Assembly (NCBI GenBank): GCA_028713935.1
Contig: JAQTNI010000046.1
Span: forward strand, 1 to 9,199
Origin: Candidatus Iainarchaeum sp.
GTDB taxonomy: Archaea > Iainarchaeota > Iainarchaeia > Iainarchaeales > GCA-2688035
Length of the DNA stretch: 9,199 nucleotides
Direction of reading: 5' to 3'
Under the pieces are notes generated by a model. The model was not told the origin of the DNA, did no database searches, and worked only from the letters and a program-made list of their open reading frames with translations. Shown here in pieces: positions 1 through 9,199 of the stretch. The first letter of the stretch is position 1, and the number at the start of each line of letters is the position of its first letter. The position numbers and the translations under genes were made by a program.

Positions 1-120
1 GAAGCCGAGGACGGTTTTCCCGATGACGCGCGCAAGCTCACCGCCAAGGGCGGGAAGCAGGCGGCGAAAATGGCGGCCTGGCTGAAGGCGCGGCTACCGT
101 CCCACGCGCTGATTCTGGTC
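1..120 (+). CDS. Partial internal fragment of a histidine-phosphatase-family protein (SixA-like phosphohistidine phosphatase), in a GC-rich segment unlike the rest of the window
   Basis: Frame +1 reads EAEDGFPDDARKLTAKGGKQAAKMAAWLKARLPSHALILVS. This fits the SixA pattern D..R.LT..G..Q...MA.WL.....ILVSP. My hand count gives 81/120 GC, against 22/60 in the next 60 nt. The fragment has no start or stop codon. Confidence 0.4.
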
Positions 121-785
121 TCAAAACAATCCTTTATTATATGCGGGATTACAACCCTTGAATCAGTGTCCTCAACCCATTCAACGGGAATTTCCTTTAT
201 TTTATAGCCCGCCATTATTGCAAGAAGCAATAATTCCGTGTCAAAAAACCATTCCTTGTTTTTTGCATAAGGCAGCAAATTCTGCGCAGCACTTCTCTTT
301 ATCGCCTTGAAGCCGCACTGCGTGTCAGTAAGGCCAGTGAAAAAAAGAACCTTGAGAAGAAGCAGGAAAGCCCTTGAAATAAACCATCTTCCAAGGCTCC
401 TGTGAGTATCGGAGCCTTTCGCGTATCTCGAACCGATTGCAATGTCATTGCCCTGCTTTACCGCATTAACCAATGCGGGAAAATGCTTCAGCCTTGTTGA
501 AAGGTCAATGTCCATATAAGCGAGAATATCCGCCTTGCTCTGCATCCAGGCAGTTTTCAAAGCATAACCCCTGCCTTTCTGCTTTAACAGCAATGCATTC
601 ACTTCTTTGTGTTTTTTTGAAAGCGCTTTTGCAAGTTCAGGCGTTGAATCTTTCGAACCGTTATCCACAATAGTAATTGCAAATTCATCCCTGATATTTT
701 TTTTCAAAAAGCCAAGCAGGGTTTCAACTGAGGATTTTAACTGCTCTTCCTCATTGTAAACAGGGAGAAAAACCTCAATAAGCAT
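121..785 (-). CDS. Family 2 glycosyltransferase (dolichyl-phosphate sugar transferase-like), with its 3' end cut by the composition junction at about 120/121
   Basis: Hand translation from the ATG at 785..783 gives MLIEVFLPVYNEEEQLKSSVETLLGFLKKN...ITIVDNGSKDSTPELA...KGRGYALKTAWMQSKADILAYMDIDLS...IAIGSRY...TDTQCGFKAIKR...WFFDTELLLLA...IKEIPVEWVEDTDSRV. The GT2 hallmarks are present (VDNGS.D, DxD as DID, QCGFK, FDTEL). The ORF stays open to the left edge, so it has no stop and is absent from the ORF track. Confidence 0.85.
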
Positions 786-3418: not shown

Positions 3419-4162
3419 ATGGTTCGGGCTTCGAAAAGAAGGTTTGACCCAGGGCGCAGGGCTTTTTTGATAAAAGCGGCAAAAGCTGCCGGCAGCGTTT
3501 CTGTTGGGACAGCACTGTATAACGCGCCAAAATTCTGGCGCTGGATTTTAAGGAAAAGAGACACAAAAATAAATTCTCCTGTTTCAGCGCGAGGCAAAAG
3601 CGTTAAACAAATAATTGAAGAGTGGCCAGAAATTCAGAACAAGGAAATGGTTTGGATAAAAGAAAAGGGAAAACCCGGCAGTTTGCTCCCCAAAGCATAT
3701 GAGCGTGGTGAAAATTATGCTGGTTATTTTTTGAAAGGGAATGAAAGGTCAATTATTCACACTCACCCCATGGGAAGAAGCAATATTCCTTCTCCGGATG
3801 ACATATGCAGTTTCTTGAACAGGCTTGAAACTGACCTCAATAAAACACCAAAAATTGAGCACATTGCTGCGCTTAATCATGAAGGCAAAGTAATGGGTTA
3901 TTTTTCTTTGCGTGCAGGAAAAAAAATGGTTCAGGCAATTGAACAAAAAAATCCTGCATTAAAACCTTTGTTGGAAGAATTGGAAAGATTAAAGGTAAGC
4001 CCAAATTGGGAAAAAGACCCTATTGCGTTCGTGCGCGACCCAAATTATTGGAACATTTTGGAACGTTTTCAAAAAATTGGCTTGCAAATGCGCGCAACCT
4101 CCATGCCAGGTTACAAATTTGAAAATTGGCATTTTCAGGAAAAAGGAAATCCAATGGCATAA
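3419..4162 (+). CDS. Hypothetical protein with an N-terminal twin-arginine (Tat)-type signal and a RadC/JAB (MPN+)-like metalloprotease motif
   Basis: The N-terminus is MVRASKRRFDPGRRAFLIKAAKAAGSVSVGTALYNAP. It contains RRxFLxK, close to the Tat consensus [ST]RRxFLK, followed by a mildly hydrophobic h-region. Mid-protein, IIHTHPMGRSNIPSPDDI matches JAMM HxHx7SxxD with one extra spacer residue. It is followed by IEHIAAL, which resembles the RadC DHiIv element. A partial SD (AGGT) lies 7 nt upstream of the ATG. The coding call is solid; the functional call is tentative. Confidence 0.55.
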   Translation: MVRASKRRFDPGRRAFLIKAAKAAGSVSVGTALYNAPKFWRWILRKRDTKINSPVSARGKSVKQIIEEWPEIQNKEMVWIKEKGKPGSLLPKAYERGENYAGYFLKGNERSIIHTHPMGRSNIPSPDDICSFLNRLETDLNKTPKIEHIAALNHEGKVMGYFSLRAGKKMVQAIEQKNPALKPLLEELERLKVSPNWEKDPIAFVRDPNYWNILERFQKIGLQMRATSMPGYKFENWHFQEKGNPMA

Positions 4163-5428: not shown

Positions 5429-6301
5429 TCATTGGTCCAAATCAATATTACCTGAAAGAAGCCGTATGCCATTCTCACAAATAGTATAAGGAATAAGGCC
5501 TTTTACCTGCTTTGCGCTTCTAATCTTAAGAATTTCAGCCGCATTCATTCTCTTGTTCCTGATTTTAATATTATAAAAAACAATTACAACATCAGCCAAA
5601 AATTCTTCTATCCCCTGTGAGCTGTAAACAGTCGGGTCCTGAGTTGTTTCTGAAATAACAAGGCTGACACAATTATACTTTTCAAGCAGGTCAAACAATT
5701 CCTTCACATAACGCCTGAATTTCTGCTCGCTTTCAAAAGTAACTGAAAGCGCTGAAAGCGAATCAATTACTATCCTGTCGGGCTTGAATGGCAATTCAAG
5801 CTCTGCAACTTCAATCATTAATTCGCCCGACTGCTTCTCAATCATTGCCTCAACAGTCTTGGCAACCTTTAACGGGTCAAACTTGATTATTGCAAAATTG
5901 CCCTTTTTTTCCAGAGGCGCAACATCCCAGCCATAATTGCTTTTCATGTGCTTCTTTATTCTTTCAGGGTCTTCTTCAAAAGAAACATAAATGCATTTTT
6001 CGCCCGCAAGCGCGCTTTCAAAAAGCGATTGGAAACAAAAAGTTGTTTTTCCAGTTCCCGCTCCCCCCGCAATAAGGACAACACTGCCCCTTTCAAAGCC
6101 ATGGCTTGAAACAAGCTTGTCAAAAGAATCAACCCTTATAGGCAGAACCTCAAATTGTTTTTCCTCTGTTTTTTCATTCGGCTTTATGACATTGTGCCTC
6201 TCGCCTATTTCCGGGCTTTCATGCACAATGCCTTCTTCAGGCTCGCCAGTTTTCTGGGATTTTTTGCCAGTACCCTTAAAAACTTCTTTCAGCAAGCCCA
6301 T
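5429..6301 (-). CDS. Single-domain KaiC/RecA-superfamily ATPase (COG0467-like) with a charged N-terminal extension of about 55 aa
   Basis: The core is FDKLVSSHGFERGSVVLIAGGAGTGKTTFCFQSLFESALAGEKCIYVSFEEDPERI. It has Walker A GGAGTGKT and Walker B-like RIVIDSLSAL. The C-terminus EILKIRSAKQVKGLIPYTICENGIRL is typical of KaiC-like proteins. Its stop codon (5429..5431) abuts the MTAP stop (5426..5428). Confidence 0.85.
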   Translation of the reverse strand: MGLLKEVFKGTGKKSQKTGEPEEGIVHESPEIGERHNVIKPNEKTEEKQFEVLPIRVDSFDKLVSSHGFERGSVVLIAGGAGTGKTTFCFQSLFESALAGEKCIYVSFEEDPERIKKHMKSNYGWDVAPLEKKGNFAIIKFDPLKVAKTVEAMIEKQSGELMIEVAELELPFKPDRIVIDSLSALSVTFESEQKFRRYVKELFDLLEKYNCVSLVISETTQDPTVYSSQGIEEFLADVVIVFYNIKIRNKRMNAAEILKIRSAKQVKGLIPYTICENGIRLLSGNIDLDQ

Positions 6302-6332
6302 AAAAAAAACCAGTGAATAAAATTCATAATAA

Positions 6333-7538
6333 TTAAGACTTTTTCCTATTTAATTGTTTCCCGGCTTCGGAAATCTCAAGCTTGAATTCACTGAGCCTTT
6401 TCCTGTAATATTCCTCTGAAATAGACCTTTCCTTGAAATACTTTGCCTGCAAATTCTCAATTTCCCTGTTCAAAAAAGCAATTTTTTTCTCCAGGCCTTT
6501 TTTTGAAGAACGCCTTTTTTCAAAAAAAACAGCCAAAAAAACAGCAGCCAAAATCACAATTATAATTGCGCCAAAAGCAAGCTGATTCCCAAAGCCAAGC
6601 CAAAAGCCCTTTTCAACAAAAAAAGTCTCTTCCCTTGAAGCGGAATTGCCAAAAGCATCTGTAACAGCCAGCACAACAGTGTGAGGCCCAATGCTTTCCC
6701 CGCCAAAAAGCTTCTGATAAGAAAACCTTTTTTCAGAAACCTGCTGCAAAAACCCCTTATTGCCACAGCATTCAATGGAAACAACAGGCTCCTTCAGCGG
6801 AGTTCCATCAGCATAAGTAATTTCAACCAGAATATTCTGCAGCACCCCTGCTTCAATCCTGCCTATCACCACAGGCTCAATAACGGAAATAATCATTTTT
6901 GCTTTTTCAATTCCAAAAGCCTTTACAAATTGCCCCCTTATTTTTTGAACAGGGTTTACTGCAACCATGACCAGGTTCCAGCTTGATTCATTAAAATCCA
7001 CTGGAACCAAAAAATTGCCCTTAAACAAGCCATTGCCAACAGGAGTCAAAACAGACTTTGAACCATCGGGCACCCAATAAAAAACATTCGCATCATTGAA
7101 AGAAGCATTGTTAAAAATCACCTGCACAGTAAAATCAACGGAATCATTGCGGCTCAATTTTTCAACTGCAGGGGTGAGAAGCACCAGGGAAAGCAAAACA
7201 GTTTCCTGCTTCGGATAAATAAATGTGTCAACAGAATTTTTGTCCCGAGAATCGGAAAAATCAAATTCCCATTTTCCGGTCGGATAATCAAGGCCTGTCT
7301 GGAATTCAACGGAATAAAAAAAATTCAGGCATTTTGCAGACTTCAAAAAAAGAGTTTCATTGTAAATGGAAACCCGCGCCTCAACAGAACTGCCTGTGCA
7401 GCTTCCCGAAAAAACAATTTTGTCCCCCAAAAAAAAATCTTTTTGCCCGGCATCCATTGAAAGCGCAGCCGCATTCGCCGCAAAAAAACAAAAAACAGCA
7501 AAAAAAACAAAAAATCCAAAACCAATCCTTATAGACAT
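6333..7538 (-). CDS. Type-I membrane surface protein: signal peptide, about 3 Ig/MG-like beta-rich modules, one C-terminal TM helix and a cytoplasmic SHOCT-like coiled-coil tail; paralog of the upstream gene
   Basis: From the ATG at 7538 the protein begins MSIRIGFGFFVFFAVFCFFAANAAA, a signal-like sequence. The TM helix is LAFGAIIIVILAAVFLAVFF (about 6522..6605). The tail is EKRRSSKKGLEKKIAFLNREIENLQAKYFKERSISEEYYRKRL.... The track start at 7571 adds MKSLKRQKGGK and would overlap the upstream gene by 32 nt. The 7538 start leaves a 1-nt gap and has AGGCGGT 4 nt upstream. Confidence 0.7.
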   Translation of the reverse strand: MSIRIGFGFFVFFAVFCFFAANAAALSMDAGQKDFFLGDKIVFSGSCTGSSVEARVSIYNETLFLKSAKCLNFFYSVEFQTGLDYPTGKWEFDFSDSRDKNSVDTFIYPKQETVLLSLVLLTPAVEKLSRNDSVDFTVQVIFNNASFNDANVFYWVPDGSKSVLTPVGNGLFKGNFLVPVDFNESSWNLVMVAVNPVQKIRGQFVKAFGIEKAKMIISVIEPVVIGRIEAGVLQNILVEITYADGTPLKEPVVSIECCGNKGFLQQVSEKRFSYQKLFGGESIGPHTVVLAVTDAFGNSASREETFFVEKGFWLGFGNQLAFGAIIIVILAAVFLAVFFEKRRSSKKGLEKKIAFLNREIENLQAKYFKERSISEEYYRKRLSEFKLEISEAGKQLNRKKS

Positions 7539-7539
7539 T

Positions 7540-9199
7540 TTACCGCCTTTTTGCCTTTTCAAGCTTTTCACTTAGCTTCTGCATTTCAGATTCATACTGC
7601 GCCCTGCTCATCAGGCCTTTCTGGAAATAATTTTCCTGCAACTCCCTTATTCTTGCCTCTGCCAAAGAAATGTTTTTTTTCTTTGAAGTTGCAAACGACC
7701 TTGCAAGTGCGCCCCTGAAAACAAAGAAAAATAATGCGGCCGCAATTGCAAGCACCGCAATCAGCTGCAATGCATTCCTGGCAAGCACATAGGAAAAGCT
7801 TTCCCCTATAACACTCACTTTTTTTTCAACGGAAACAACATTTCCATAAGAATCAGCAACCTTGATTGAAACAAAAGGGCTCCCAACATCTTCCTCGGAA
7901 AAAGCATAGCTCCCAACAAAGCGCCCCGGCTCTGCCTGGCGCAATGGAATTTCCTTTGCATTCACCAAAACAAATGCCTTTGCATCAACAACCTTTGATT
8001 TGTCAGGATAATAAGCCAGGATTTCAAATTCAATAATGTCGCCAATCTGAAAAAAATCATCTTTAGGCAAAATTGTTTCAATTATGGGAGTGGTTTTTTC
8101 AACAACAATTTTGCCAGTTGCAGTTGCCTCTGCAACAATCAATGAACCGTCTTTTTTTGCAGCGGAAACAGAAAAAGAATTTTCGCCTTCCTTTGCAGAA
8201 AACGGAATTACAAGCGAAACAGAATACTTGCCAGGCTCAAATTCAAAAAACCTGGTTTTTTGCCCAAACACCTCTACAAAAGCCTCTGCCTTTTCCACAC
8301 CATTGCCGGATTCATCGGAAATCGCAATAACAAGCGGAACCTCTTCGCCTCTCCCAAAAGACTCTTTTTGAAGCGGCTCTATTGCAATTGAAAGCTTTTT
8401 TGCAAAAACCTTTTCCTTAACTTCAAAAGCCCTCTGGAAAAAAGCCTTGTTTCCATTGCCATCAATTCCCGTAATCAAAAGGGAATATTCCCCAAGCTTG
8501 CCAAGCAATGAAACAGGATAAGAAAAAGAAAAAGCCCCTGTATTTACATCAGAAGCAAAAACACTGTTGAAAACACTTTTTCCCTGGAAAAAAATATTTG
8601 CATCAAGCATTATGCCAACAGGCTTCGCCTTTGCCCTTACAAAGCCCTGCAAATCCAAAACATCACCCAAAGCAACGCTTTGAGGAATATCAAGAACAAC
8701 ATTCAGGTCAGGTTTCACCAAAAAATTTGCCTTTGCTGTTCCAGTAACCCCCCTGAAAACAGCAGTGAATTCAACAGGATTAGGGCCAAGCATTGAAGGC
8801 AAAACATTTACAAAATTGCCATAAATTGCATCAAAAGAACTGCTGTCCCCATGCCTGCTGTCATTGTAAAGCACATAATTCTTTGAGCCAATCCTGAAGC
8901 TCGCTTCCGCGCCAATCACTTTTGATTTCCCATCAGCAAGAATCTCAACAACAACATTTGCCTTTTCCCCAAAAACAAAATAATCATTTACAGAAGGCAC
9001 AATAACAGAAATATCAATGCTCTTCGGAGTGCAATCTGCAGGGCAGCCCTCATAAGTTTCGCTTGATTCACAGGTTGCATTGCCGCAGCAATTTGTCTTT
9101 AAAATAATTTTGCAGACACCGCTGACACAGCCAAGCTCTTTGCAGGCATCATTCCCGTACTGGCCGGAACAATTGCCACAATCGCCTGGGCAACTGCAC
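7540..9199 (-). CDS. Partial (5' end outside the window) large surface protein: Cys-rich head, four tandem Ig/MG-like modules of about 95 aa, a C-terminal TM helix and a SHOCT-like cytoplasmic tail
   Basis: The track start at 9000 is a GTG. The frame stays open upstream to 9199 and reads CSCPGDCGNCSGQYGNDACKELGCVSGVCKIILKTNCCGNATCESSETYEGCPADCTPKSIDISVIV. The modules recur with the pattern G[DE].h.h.h.....A.hFh......G.Y.h.h.h......G....h...D..GN. The TM helix is LQLIAVLAIAAALFFFVF (about 7717..7788). The tail is KKKNISLAEARIRELQENYFQKGLMSRAQYESEMQKL. Confidence 0.72.
   Translation of the reverse strand, partial: CSCPGDCGNCSGQYGNDACKELGCVSGVCKIILKTNCCGNATCESSETYEGCPADCTPKSIDISVIVPSVNDYFVFGEKANVVVEILADGKSKVIGAEASFRIGSKNYVLYNDSRHGDSSSFDAIYGNFVNVLPSMLGPNPVEFTAVFRGVTGTAKANFLVKPDLNVVLDIPQSVALGDVLDLQGFVRAKAKPVGIMLDANIFFQGKSVFNSVFASDVNTGAFSFSYPVSLLGKLGEYSLLITGIDGNGNKAFFQRAFEVKEKVFAKKLSIAIEPLQKESFGRGEEVPLVIAISDESGNGVEKAEAFVEVFGQKTRFFEFEPGKYSVSLVIPFSAKEGENSFSVSAAKKDGSLIVAEATATGKIVVEKTTPIIETILPKDDFFQIGDIIEFEILAYYPDKSKVVDAKAFVLVNAKEIPLRQAEPGRFVGSYAFSEEDVGSPFVSIKVADSYGNVVSVEKKVSVIGESFSYVLARNALQLIAVLAIAAALFFFVFRGALARSFATSKKKNISLAEARIRELQENYFQKGLMSRAQYESEMQKLSEKLEKAKRR

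Follow-up and report, generated by a model that had tools for sequence, protein, structure and literature searches.

Does the close packing of two genes for surface proteins and a gene for a KaiC-like ATPase in an archaeal genome reflect a functional link between the cell surface and the cytoplasm? The question is raised by positions 5,429 to 9,199 of a 9,199-bp stretch of DNA from Candidatus Iainarchaeum sp. (Iainarchaeota, within the DPANN archaea; GenBank assembly GCA_028713935.1, contig JAQTNI010000046.1). This stretch is an entire contig and is referred to here as the window. The region contains three minus-strand open reading frames (ORFs) in the gene order A, B, KaiC-like ATPase (gene C). 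Our analysis suggests that these genes probably make up a hitherto undescribed unit in which the cell surface is connected with an ATPase in the cytoplasm.

Layout of the three genes

The genes and the spacer between the last two are as follows.

7540-9198, minus strand, still open where the window ends: gene A, encoding the larger of the two surface proteins (at least 552 amino acids [aa] visible in the ORF; about 586 aa when complete)
6333-7538, minus strand: gene B, the smaller, paralogous surface protein (ORF from ATG, 401 aa; identical to NCBI protein P0121)
6302-6332, minus strand: spacer between gene B and the ATPase gene (31 nucleotides [nt], A+T rich, with a T8 run abutting the ATG; sequence TTATTATGAATTTTATTCACTGGTTTTTTTT)
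5429-6301, minus strand: gene C, a single-domain KaiC-like ATPase of the RecA superfamily (290 aa; Pfam PF06745, E 6e-50)

The first-pass annotation of this DNA had described three codirectional minus-strand genes separated by a 1-nt gap (or a 32-nt overlap) and then a 31-nt gap, which is exactly what the sequence contains. The gap between the A stop codon and the B start codon is 1 nt if B begins at the ATG at 7538, the start chosen by the NCBI annotation (P0121), and becomes a 32-nt overlap if B begins at an alternative GTG at 7571 (6333-7571; 412 aa). The B stop codon is separated from the ATG of the ATPase gene by 31 nt. This spacer could hold an archaeal oligo-T terminator or a TATA-like box, and cotranscription of the ATPase gene with A and B is thus not guaranteed in this genome. 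For gene A, the ORF and the architecture described earlier stand, while its truncation by the contig end had been missed: no stop codon lies upstream, and the ORF runs off the contig, with its 5' end just beyond the window edge. Relative to a full-length ortholog (locus L086; 590 aa, 51% identity over 557 aa), gene A lacks about 34 N-terminal residues, corresponding to the signal peptide.

Conservation of the gene neighborhood

We fetched 80 genome loci on the basis of ATPase homologs, called their ORFs, and identified relatives of A and B by local iterative hidden Markov model searches. Homologs of A and B were located within two genes of the ATPase gene in all 10 well-flanked loci with an ATPase identity of at least 48%, in 12 of 18 loci at 43 to 48% identity, and in 6 of 20 loci below 43%. 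Of the 282 genes within two positions of the ATPase gene, 58 belonged to the A/B family; among the 622 more distant genes, the number was 15 (odds ratio, 10.5; Fisher P = 8e-19, an uncorrected value that is optimistic because the loci are phylogenetically related). In a reciprocal test that started from four B-family representatives on long contigs, a KaiC-like gene was adjacent in three. The adjacency, whose possible absence from related genomes had been a doubt named in the first-pass annotation, is therefore conserved.

The adjacency was found in Iainarchaeota, Woesearchaeia/Nanoarchaeia, Aenigmatarchaeota, and Hadarchaeota, and the gene order varied (K denotes the KaiC-like gene). The order A-B-K was observed in many Iainarchaeota (L002, L005, L011, L017, L080, and L086), and the order K-A-B was observed in other Iainarchaeota and in Woesearchaeota/Nanoarchaeia (L010, L012, L018, L021, L029, L032, L038, and L069). 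One locus had the order A-K-B (L034), and in four others the neighbors lay on opposite strands, either divergent or convergent (L019, L030, L039, and L049). Hadarchaeota loci contained the ATPase gene together with one (L047 and L055) or two (L054) genes for A/B-family proteins, at least one of which bore the tail motif described below. Up to three A/B paralogs were present in a single locus. Gene orders that differ between lineages point to selection on proximity rather than to inherited synteny. Overlaps of 4 nt were frequent between B and the ATPase gene (L005, L011, and L088) and also between A and B, which suggests translational coupling.

That the three genes are coincidental neighbors in a compact genome, with no functional link, is hardly credible in light of these data. 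DPANN genomes are gene dense, and short intergenic gaps are common in them; the T8 run ahead of the ATPase gene would also suit unlinked genes. However, adjacency in at least four phylum-level lineages, in rearranged orders, and again in the reciprocal test already contradicts this explanation.

The two surface proteins

The extracellular and membrane-spanning features of A and B are as follows.

9019-9198, minus strand: Cys-rich N-terminal extracellular module of A, aa 1 to 60 of the visible translation (CSCPGDCGNC...CPADCTPKS)
7717-7791, minus strand: C-terminal transmembrane (TM) helix of A, aa 470 to 494 of the visible ORF (hydropathy scan and sequence)
7464-7538, minus strand: signal peptide of B, aa 1 to 25, MSIRIGFGFFVFFAVFCFFAANAAA (hydropathy scan and inspection by eye)
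6522-6581, minus strand: C-terminal TM helix of B, aa 320 to 339 (hydropathy scan; lies inside a modeled helix, residues 312 to 369)

An AlphaFold model of B, built on a 4-sequence alignment (mean predicted local distance difference test [pLDDT] score, 77.9), contained three beta-sandwich domains at approximately aa 35 to 110, 117 to 211, and 215 to 309, and the signal peptide region was disordered. N-terminal hydrophobic segments are kept in B orthologs. In Foldseek searches, the B ectodomain matched macroglobulin (MG) domains of CD109, C3, and bacterial alpha-2-macroglobulin as well as bacterial and eukaryotic immunoglobulin (Ig) repeats (E ~1e-10), including the bacterial Ig-like adhesin repeats of ECAM and SiiE; the TM-scores of these matches were low because the domain orientations differ. 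A search of PDB sequences with the full B profile gave nonsignificant results (SiiE Ig repeat, E 0.0015). No Pfam or NCBIfam match was obtained for the window's own A and B. Among A orthologs, Pfam identified MG2 (above the cutoff in L080), Big_7, NPCBM_assoc, and Ig_Rha78A_N. The tandem beta-sandwich ectodomain of Ig-like/MG surface proteins is thus present, and AlphaFold, Foldseek, and hydropathy agree with the first-pass description of tandem beta-sandwiches, one C-terminal TM helix, and a basic tail of 58 to 62 aa.

The first-pass annotation had also taken A and B for paralogs. Pairwise BLASTP was marginal in this respect (E 0.009 to 0.027), and alignment of profiles from 12 A orthologs and 12 B orthologs with hhalign gave a probability of 100% (E 4.7e-59), with A residues 164 to 552 covering the whole mature B. 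Judged from these profiles, A and B are true paralogs, and in A the B-like module follows a Cys-rich domain and additional beta-sandwich sequence. The cysteines of the Cys-rich module were invariant or nearly so in a 12-sequence A-family alignment.

The apparent size of the family depended on the search. A word-indexed search of 5.8 billion proteins, with B alone or with the 12-sequence B alignment, returned only 3 to 4 homologs. A HMMER scan of 1.84 billion cluster representatives with the B profile returned 1,393 clusters (50% identity) at E ≤1e-3, 593 at E ≤1e-10, and 184 at E ≤1e-30. The top matches were mostly B-type proteins of 390 to 420 aa, followed by A-type proteins, whose C-terminal 380 aa matched the whole profile. 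A-type proteins were as long as 1,300 to 2,300 aa in Woesearchaeota.

Two related loci encode a third kind of flanking surface protein (L087:7999-11136, 1,045 aa; L088:1962-4037, 691 aa). These proteins have a Cys-rich stretch before the C-terminal TM helix and a very short tail that lacks the tail motif. In its cysteine content, the stretch recalls the N-terminal module of A.

A and B carry a signal peptide and a C-terminal TM helix, respectively secreting and anchoring them as in S-layer-type proteins, and the main rival explanation is that A and B are structural parts of the envelope or of an adhesion complex. They would then be a large and a small S-layer-like pair or a fixed adhesin held by its C-terminal helices, and the ATPase would serve assembly, anchoring, or turnover, as ArlH does, rather than transduce signals. 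Among archaeal S-layer proteins, it is common to find a signal peptide together with a C-terminal membrane anchor. The great length of Woesearchaeal A-type proteins, the fast-evolving ectodomains (consistent with the few B homologs found by the word-indexed search), the extracellular Cys-rich module of A, and the intact motifs of the ATPase are all in line with such a complex. Several observations argue in the other direction. At least two separate trios apparently occur in one genome (the contexts of P0032 and P0039, each with motif-bearing A and B genes), which suits a family of receptors better than one structural protein of the envelope and argues weakly against a role as the dominant lattice protein. 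Single loci hold up to three A/B paralogs. B is small, with three beta-sandwich domains only, and two-component genes and KaiC paralogs accompany the module (see below). To our knowledge, no S-layer requires a cytoplasmic ATPase. On balance, we regard a structural complex as unlikely, if worth serious consideration.

A shared motif in the cytoplasmic tails

The C-terminal TM helices are followed by basic tails (A, 58 aa with 14 K+R versus 7 D+E; B, 62 aa with 19 K+R versus 9 D+E), each of which contains a motif.

7552-7665, minus strand: A tail motif, LAEARIRELQENYFQKGLMSRAQYESEMQKLSEKLEKA, shared with the A/B family
6363-6494, minus strand: B tail motif, LEKKIAFLNREIENLQAKYFKERSISEEYYRKRLSEFKLEISEA, modeled as a helix-loop-helix hairpin

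The motif (short form, L-Q-x-x-Y-F...I-S...Y) lies tens of residues past the TM helix and follows the pattern L..(E/K)......(I/L)K.LQ..YF....IS...Y......Y...L..I. In a set of 42 tails that covers several phyla, conservation of the Q and of the first Y was 90% or higher, and the corresponding Q364 and Y367 were invariant in the 12-sequence B alignment. A regular expression for the motif, with the match restricted to the 80 aa that follow a TM helix, was found in 52 of 84 A/B-family proteins versus 0 of 968 other ORFs of the same loci. The motif spans Iainarchaeota to Hadarchaeota and is doubled in tandem in large Woesearchaeal A-type proteins. The tails had earlier been described as coiled coils; the B model instead contains a helical hairpin (helix 312 to 369, of 58 residues including the TM segment; loop 370 to 374; helix 375 to 400; pLDDT, 76 to 84) and no long coiled coil. 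The conserved Q, Y, and F residues lie at the end of the first helix, beside the hairpin turn.

Pfam searches of eight tails at E values up to 10 yielded scattered coiled-coil noise and no family match. SHOCT (PF09851), which the tails resemble by eye, was rejected as their identity given that none of the eight tails matched it at this threshold. We also rejected the idea that the tail is the sole conserved part of A and B: mean pairwise identity was 0.255 in the tail and 0.23 to 0.30 in the ectodomains.

The top PDB match of a 42-sequence tail profile was 8WHN, the cytoplasmic 4-helix bundle of an Asgard OST1 (E 0.059, nonsignificant). That domain binds ribosomes (PMC11417166), and A and B might be ribophorin-I/OST1-like proteins whose tails bind ribosomes at the translocon, with a KaiC-like neighbor unrelated to tail function. 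OST1 is built on the same general plan, with beta-sandwiches outside the membrane, a lone TM helix, and helices in the cytoplasm, and the two hairpin motifs of Woesearchaeal A-type tails would be enough for a 4-helix bundle. We nevertheless consider this explanation very improbable: besides the nonsignificant E value, the second aligned repeat scored 1.1 bits only, no Ribophorin_I Pfam match occurred in 13 A/B proteins, no AglB/STT3 or Sec genes were consistently adjacent, and the conserved KaiC adjacency would be left unexplained.

The KaiC-like ATPase

The features of the ATPase are as follows.

6152-6301, minus strand: N-terminal extension, aa 1 to 50 (modeled with low confidence; pLDDT, 43 to 62)
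6044-6067, minus strand: Walker A motif, GGAGTGKT
5969-5986, minus strand: catalytic Glu pair in VSFEED
5759-5779, minus strand: Walker B motif, DRIVIDS

The first-pass annotation had recognized a soluble single-domain KaiC/RecA-like ATPase with a disordered, charged N terminus of 55 aa, and both descriptions agree with the results. Membership in the Pfam KaiC family (PF06745) was clear (170.1 bits versus a cutoff of 26.6; E 6e-50; aa 55 to 282), and PDB searches retrieved cyanobacterial KaiC structures (E 4e-51). The AlphaFold model (39 homologs; mean pLDDT, 81) had a confident RecA-like core, for which the top Foldseek matches were the single-domain KaiC-like protein PH0186 and the KaiC CI domain (target-normalized TM-score, 0.86). 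Residues G79, G80, G82, G84, K85, E110, D180, and S181 were invariant in the 39 homologs. All three catalytic motifs are thus retained, with key residues that do not vary among homologs, and ATP hydrolysis or autophosphorylation is plausible from the sequence. The first 55 aa are 36% K/R/D/E, and the length of the N-terminal extension ranges from about 20 to 590 aa across homologs. The ATPase evolves slowly, with 48 to 59% identity among Iainarchaeota versus only about 20% for B in the same loci.

Long extensions of other kinds were noticed by eye in KaiC-like proteins of related loci. Some paralogs have a hemerythrin-like N-terminal extension (L035:7236-8714, L043:7359-8819, and L045:158-1696), one has a winged-helix-like N-terminal extension (L025:7446-8711), and two KaiC-like proteins (L072:4401-6377 and L076:6297-8711) have an extension resembling a thrice-repeated unit of about 60 aa (...NGKNDF..W...).

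No well-characterized ATPase family that the first-pass annotation had named as a possible home (RadA/RadB or ArlH) fits, and NCBIfam scores were far below the cutoffs. The following assignments were rejected: ArlH/FlaH (NF052589, 47.2 bits versus a cutoff of 215), RadB (27.3 versus 172), RadA (23.6 versus 259), circadian KaiC (NF006799, 124.8 versus 408; TIGR02655, 96.4 versus 546; the protein has a single domain, not two), and KaiC_arch_3 (TIGR03880, 124.1 versus 249.45; among the best NCBIfam matches yet below the cutoff).

Signaling genes and other neighbors in related loci

Response regulators were encoded in 16 loci and HAMP-HisKA-HATPase histidine kinases in 10 (Woesearchaeota/Nanoarchaeia and Hadarchaeota). 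Extra KaiC paralogs cluster with the module, as in the arrangements K-A-B-K-response regulator-histidine kinase (L021) and K-K-A-response regulator-x-histidine kinase (L047). These two-component and KaiC-paralog neighbors favor a signaling role for the module.

Several loci of Woesearchaeota/Nanoarchaeia and Hadarchaeota, including L021, L029, L047, L054, L037, and L046, have the appearance of signaling islands in which A/B genes sit together with several KaiC-like paralogs and with genes for CheY-like response regulators and HAMP-HisKA-HATPase kinases. In one locus (L091:8081-11154), a type IV pilus (T4P)-like set consisting of a T2SSE ATPase gene and two T2SSF genes is located 1 kb downstream of an A-B-KaiC trio. 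In two others (L002:8994-11480 and L090:7121-9595), the next two genes after the KaiC-like gene encode MacB_PCD/FtsX-type permeases; no ABC ATPase gene lies near these permease genes, which raises the question of what energizes the permeases. The T4P and FtsX/MacB genes were rejected as extra core components given that they were seen only in L091 and in L002 and L090, respectively.

KaiC-family ATPases have been reported with archaeal T4P systems (PMC4858521), and the ATPase could accordingly be an ArlH-like regulator of a T4P- or archaellum-like machine, with A and B as accessory surface components of the filament. The L091 gene set speaks for this explanation. However, L091 was the only A/B-bearing locus with a T2SSE homolog, and the window contains no T4P or archaellum genes (none for arlI, arlJ, or archaellins). 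Moreover, A and B lack class III (pilin-type) signal features, the signal peptide of B being ordinary, and the ATPase scored 47 bits with the ArlH model versus the cutoff of 215. We judge this explanation improbable.

Proposed mechanism

It is very likely that A/B and the ATPase are functionally linked, given an adjacency that persists while gene order is shuffled, the translational coupling, and a tail motif specific to the family. What the link does is less certain. That the A/B pair and the KaiC-like ATPase act as one functional unit, in which a transmembrane receptor or adhesin pair is coupled to a signaling ATPase, is the explanation we prefer, at about an even balance between right and wrong.

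Under the preferred receptor-ATPase explanation, A and B would be type I membrane proteins displaying tandem MG/Ig-like beta-sandwiches outside the cell. Each would cross the membrane with one helix and continue into a cytoplasmic helical hairpin built around the shared motif. The tails of A and B would pair, perhaps as a small helical bundle, and dock the ATPase at the membrane. The ATPase would be catalytically competent and is presumably a hexamer like its relatives. A surface event, such as contact with a ligand, a partner cell, or the envelope, would alter the nucleotide or autophosphorylation state of the ATPase, which would relay the change to downstream partners; in many relatives, the candidates for this role are response regulators, histidine kinases, and further KaiC paralogs. 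A signal running the other way, from the state of the ATPase to the ectodomains, is equally allowed. In this scheme, we infer the heterodimerization of A and B, the contact between tails and ATPase, the formation of a hexamer, and the direction and nature of the signal.

A more specific form of the same proposal can be offered as a tentative possibility. A and B may be a heterodimeric, integrin-like MG/Ig receptor pair whose hairpins form a membrane platform for a KaiC-like hexamer, such that contact with a host, a partner, or a substrate at the surface would set the ATPase or autophosphorylation state and, through it, response regulators and KaiC paralogs. The first-pass annotation had gone further and suggested host attachment by an episymbiont. 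The module is also present in Hadarchaeota, which are not known to be episymbionts, and apparently occurs at least twice in one genome; a specific role in attachment to a host is thus unsupported.

A number of observations weigh against the coupling of a surface receptor to the ATPase. The Q, Y, and F residues of the motif lie at the hairpin turn and may therefore be structural rather than a docking surface, and the tail as a whole is not more conserved than the ectodomain (0.255 versus 0.23 to 0.30). Ig/MG-like ectodomains are generic and uninformative with respect to a ligand. Among related genomes, no KaiC gene lies downstream of a Micrarchaeal A-B pair, the fourth representative in the reciprocal test, upstream of which the contig ends, and a Woesearchaeal subclade of ATPase homologs (L022 to L028) has no A/B neighbors. 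In the window itself, no response regulator or kinase gene is present, and the T8 run in the 31-nt spacer could end archaeal transcription before the ATPase gene.

Other features of the window

The remaining genes are unrelated housekeeping genes, encoding a GT2 glycosyltransferase, an LPG-synthase-like membrane protein, a phosphoribosyltransferase, a PfkB kinase, and an HNH protein; a gene for a PNP/MTAP-type phosphorylase converges on the ATPase gene. Rfam and tRNA scans detected no Rfam family or tRNA in the window. Two further features are listed here.

3-785, minus strand: GT2 glycosyltransferase gene, running off the left end of the window
3419-4162, plus strand: 247-aa ORF with no Pfam domain

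The G+C content of positions 1 to 500, inside the GT2 gene, is 0.49, compared with 0.36 to 0.44 elsewhere in the window. The 247-aa ORF begins with a twin-arginine-like N-terminal signal, GRRAFLIKAAKAAG (weak match to the TAT signal family PF10399, E 0.009), and contains a stretch that resembles JAMM by eye, HTHPMGRSNIPSPDD. In a close relative (L085), an N6_N4 DNA methyltransferase gene occupies the same slot beside the HNH gene, suggesting a swapped cassette at 3419-4162.

Significance and comparison with known systems

No description of the A/B-KaiC pairing was found in the literature searched, and the statement of the first-pass annotation that this is not a described system stands to that extent, though an earlier mention may exist in the supplements of the 2017 paper on KaiC hubs (Makarova et al.). 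A MoxR/vWA system that includes Ig-like S-layer proteins and has been called a "novel secretion system" (PMC5898192) was considered as a match and rejected (no KaiC; different families). As read from the sequences, the new element would be a defined membrane partner family for a KaiC-like hub ATPase.

Archaeal KaiC-like ATPases are many, while their partners and inputs are mostly unknown, and the module offers a concrete and testable pairing. The A/B family is sizeable and is genomically tied to one KaiC-like clade in several phyla, and the pairing bears on how DPANN archaea sense or hold onto their surroundings. Tail peptides and the soluble ATPase should be easy to obtain recombinantly, which would permit binding, ATPase, and autophosphorylation assays that do not depend on cultivation. 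If the coupling is real, the module would provide a membrane input for the proposed KaiC signaling network and could serve as a marker when hundreds of surface proteins now listed as "hypothetical" are annotated. If the integrin-like sensor reading is true, it would be the first defined membrane input of the archaeal KaiC hub and a candidate contact sensor of DPANN archaea.

The known systems to which the trio can be compared differ from it in instructive ways. Archaeal KaiC-like ATPases have been proposed as signaling hubs (Makarova et al. 2017, as summarized in PMC5847659; see also PMC4858521), and the signaling neighbors in related loci are in keeping with that proposal. The ATPase described here resembles these hub ATPases (e.g., PH0186/2ZTS and PH0284/2DR3) in having one KaiC/RecA-like domain that retains both Walker motifs and the catalytic Glu pair, in its closest solved folds (PH0186 and the KaiC CI domain), in the variable N-terminal additions, and in the signaling genes found nearby in related loci. 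Unlike theirs, its partner is a bitopic MG/Ig-like surface pair with a conserved hairpin motif that falls outside Pfam.

In the archaellum motor, ArlH (FlaH) and its membrane scaffold ArlX/ArlCDE likewise place a single-domain KaiC-like ATPase at the membrane with one-TM proteins that have a helical cytoplasmic part (PMC8978795). The low ArlH score and the lack of arlI, arlJ, and archaellin genes in the window set the present system apart, as do the anchors: the partners of ArlH are anchored N-terminally, whereas A and B have large ectodomains and C-terminal anchors. Cyanobacterial KaiC is the best PDB sequence match (E 4e-51), with the same fold and about 25 to 31% identity in Foldseek alignments. 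It differs in having two domains rather than one; the ATPase scored 125 bits with the KaiC equivalog model versus a cutoff of 408, and neither kaiA nor kaiB is present in the window.

On the side of the surface proteins, ribophorin I/OST1 (8WHN) resembles A and B in its beta-sandwiches, its lone TM helix, and its helical cytoplasmic part but lacks a significant sequence relationship to them (E 0.059; no Ribophorin_I Pfam match), and their gene context is not that of an oligosaccharyltransferase. Bacterial alpha-2-macroglobulin and the Big adhesins (ECAM and SiiE) share the MG/BIg fold of the ectodomain, with MG2 above the cutoff in L080; in contrast to them, no thioester or bait region was detected in A or B, which are also much shorter and end in a C-terminal TM anchor and a motif-bearing tail. 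Integrin alpha/beta pairs are comparable by analogy only. They, too, are two paralogous type I proteins, each with beta-sandwiches outside, one TM helix, and a short cytoplasmic tail that could couple the two sides of the membrane, but there is no homology, and the A-B heterodimer is a predicted one; where integrins engage a cytoskeletal adaptor, the partner proposed here would be an ATPase.

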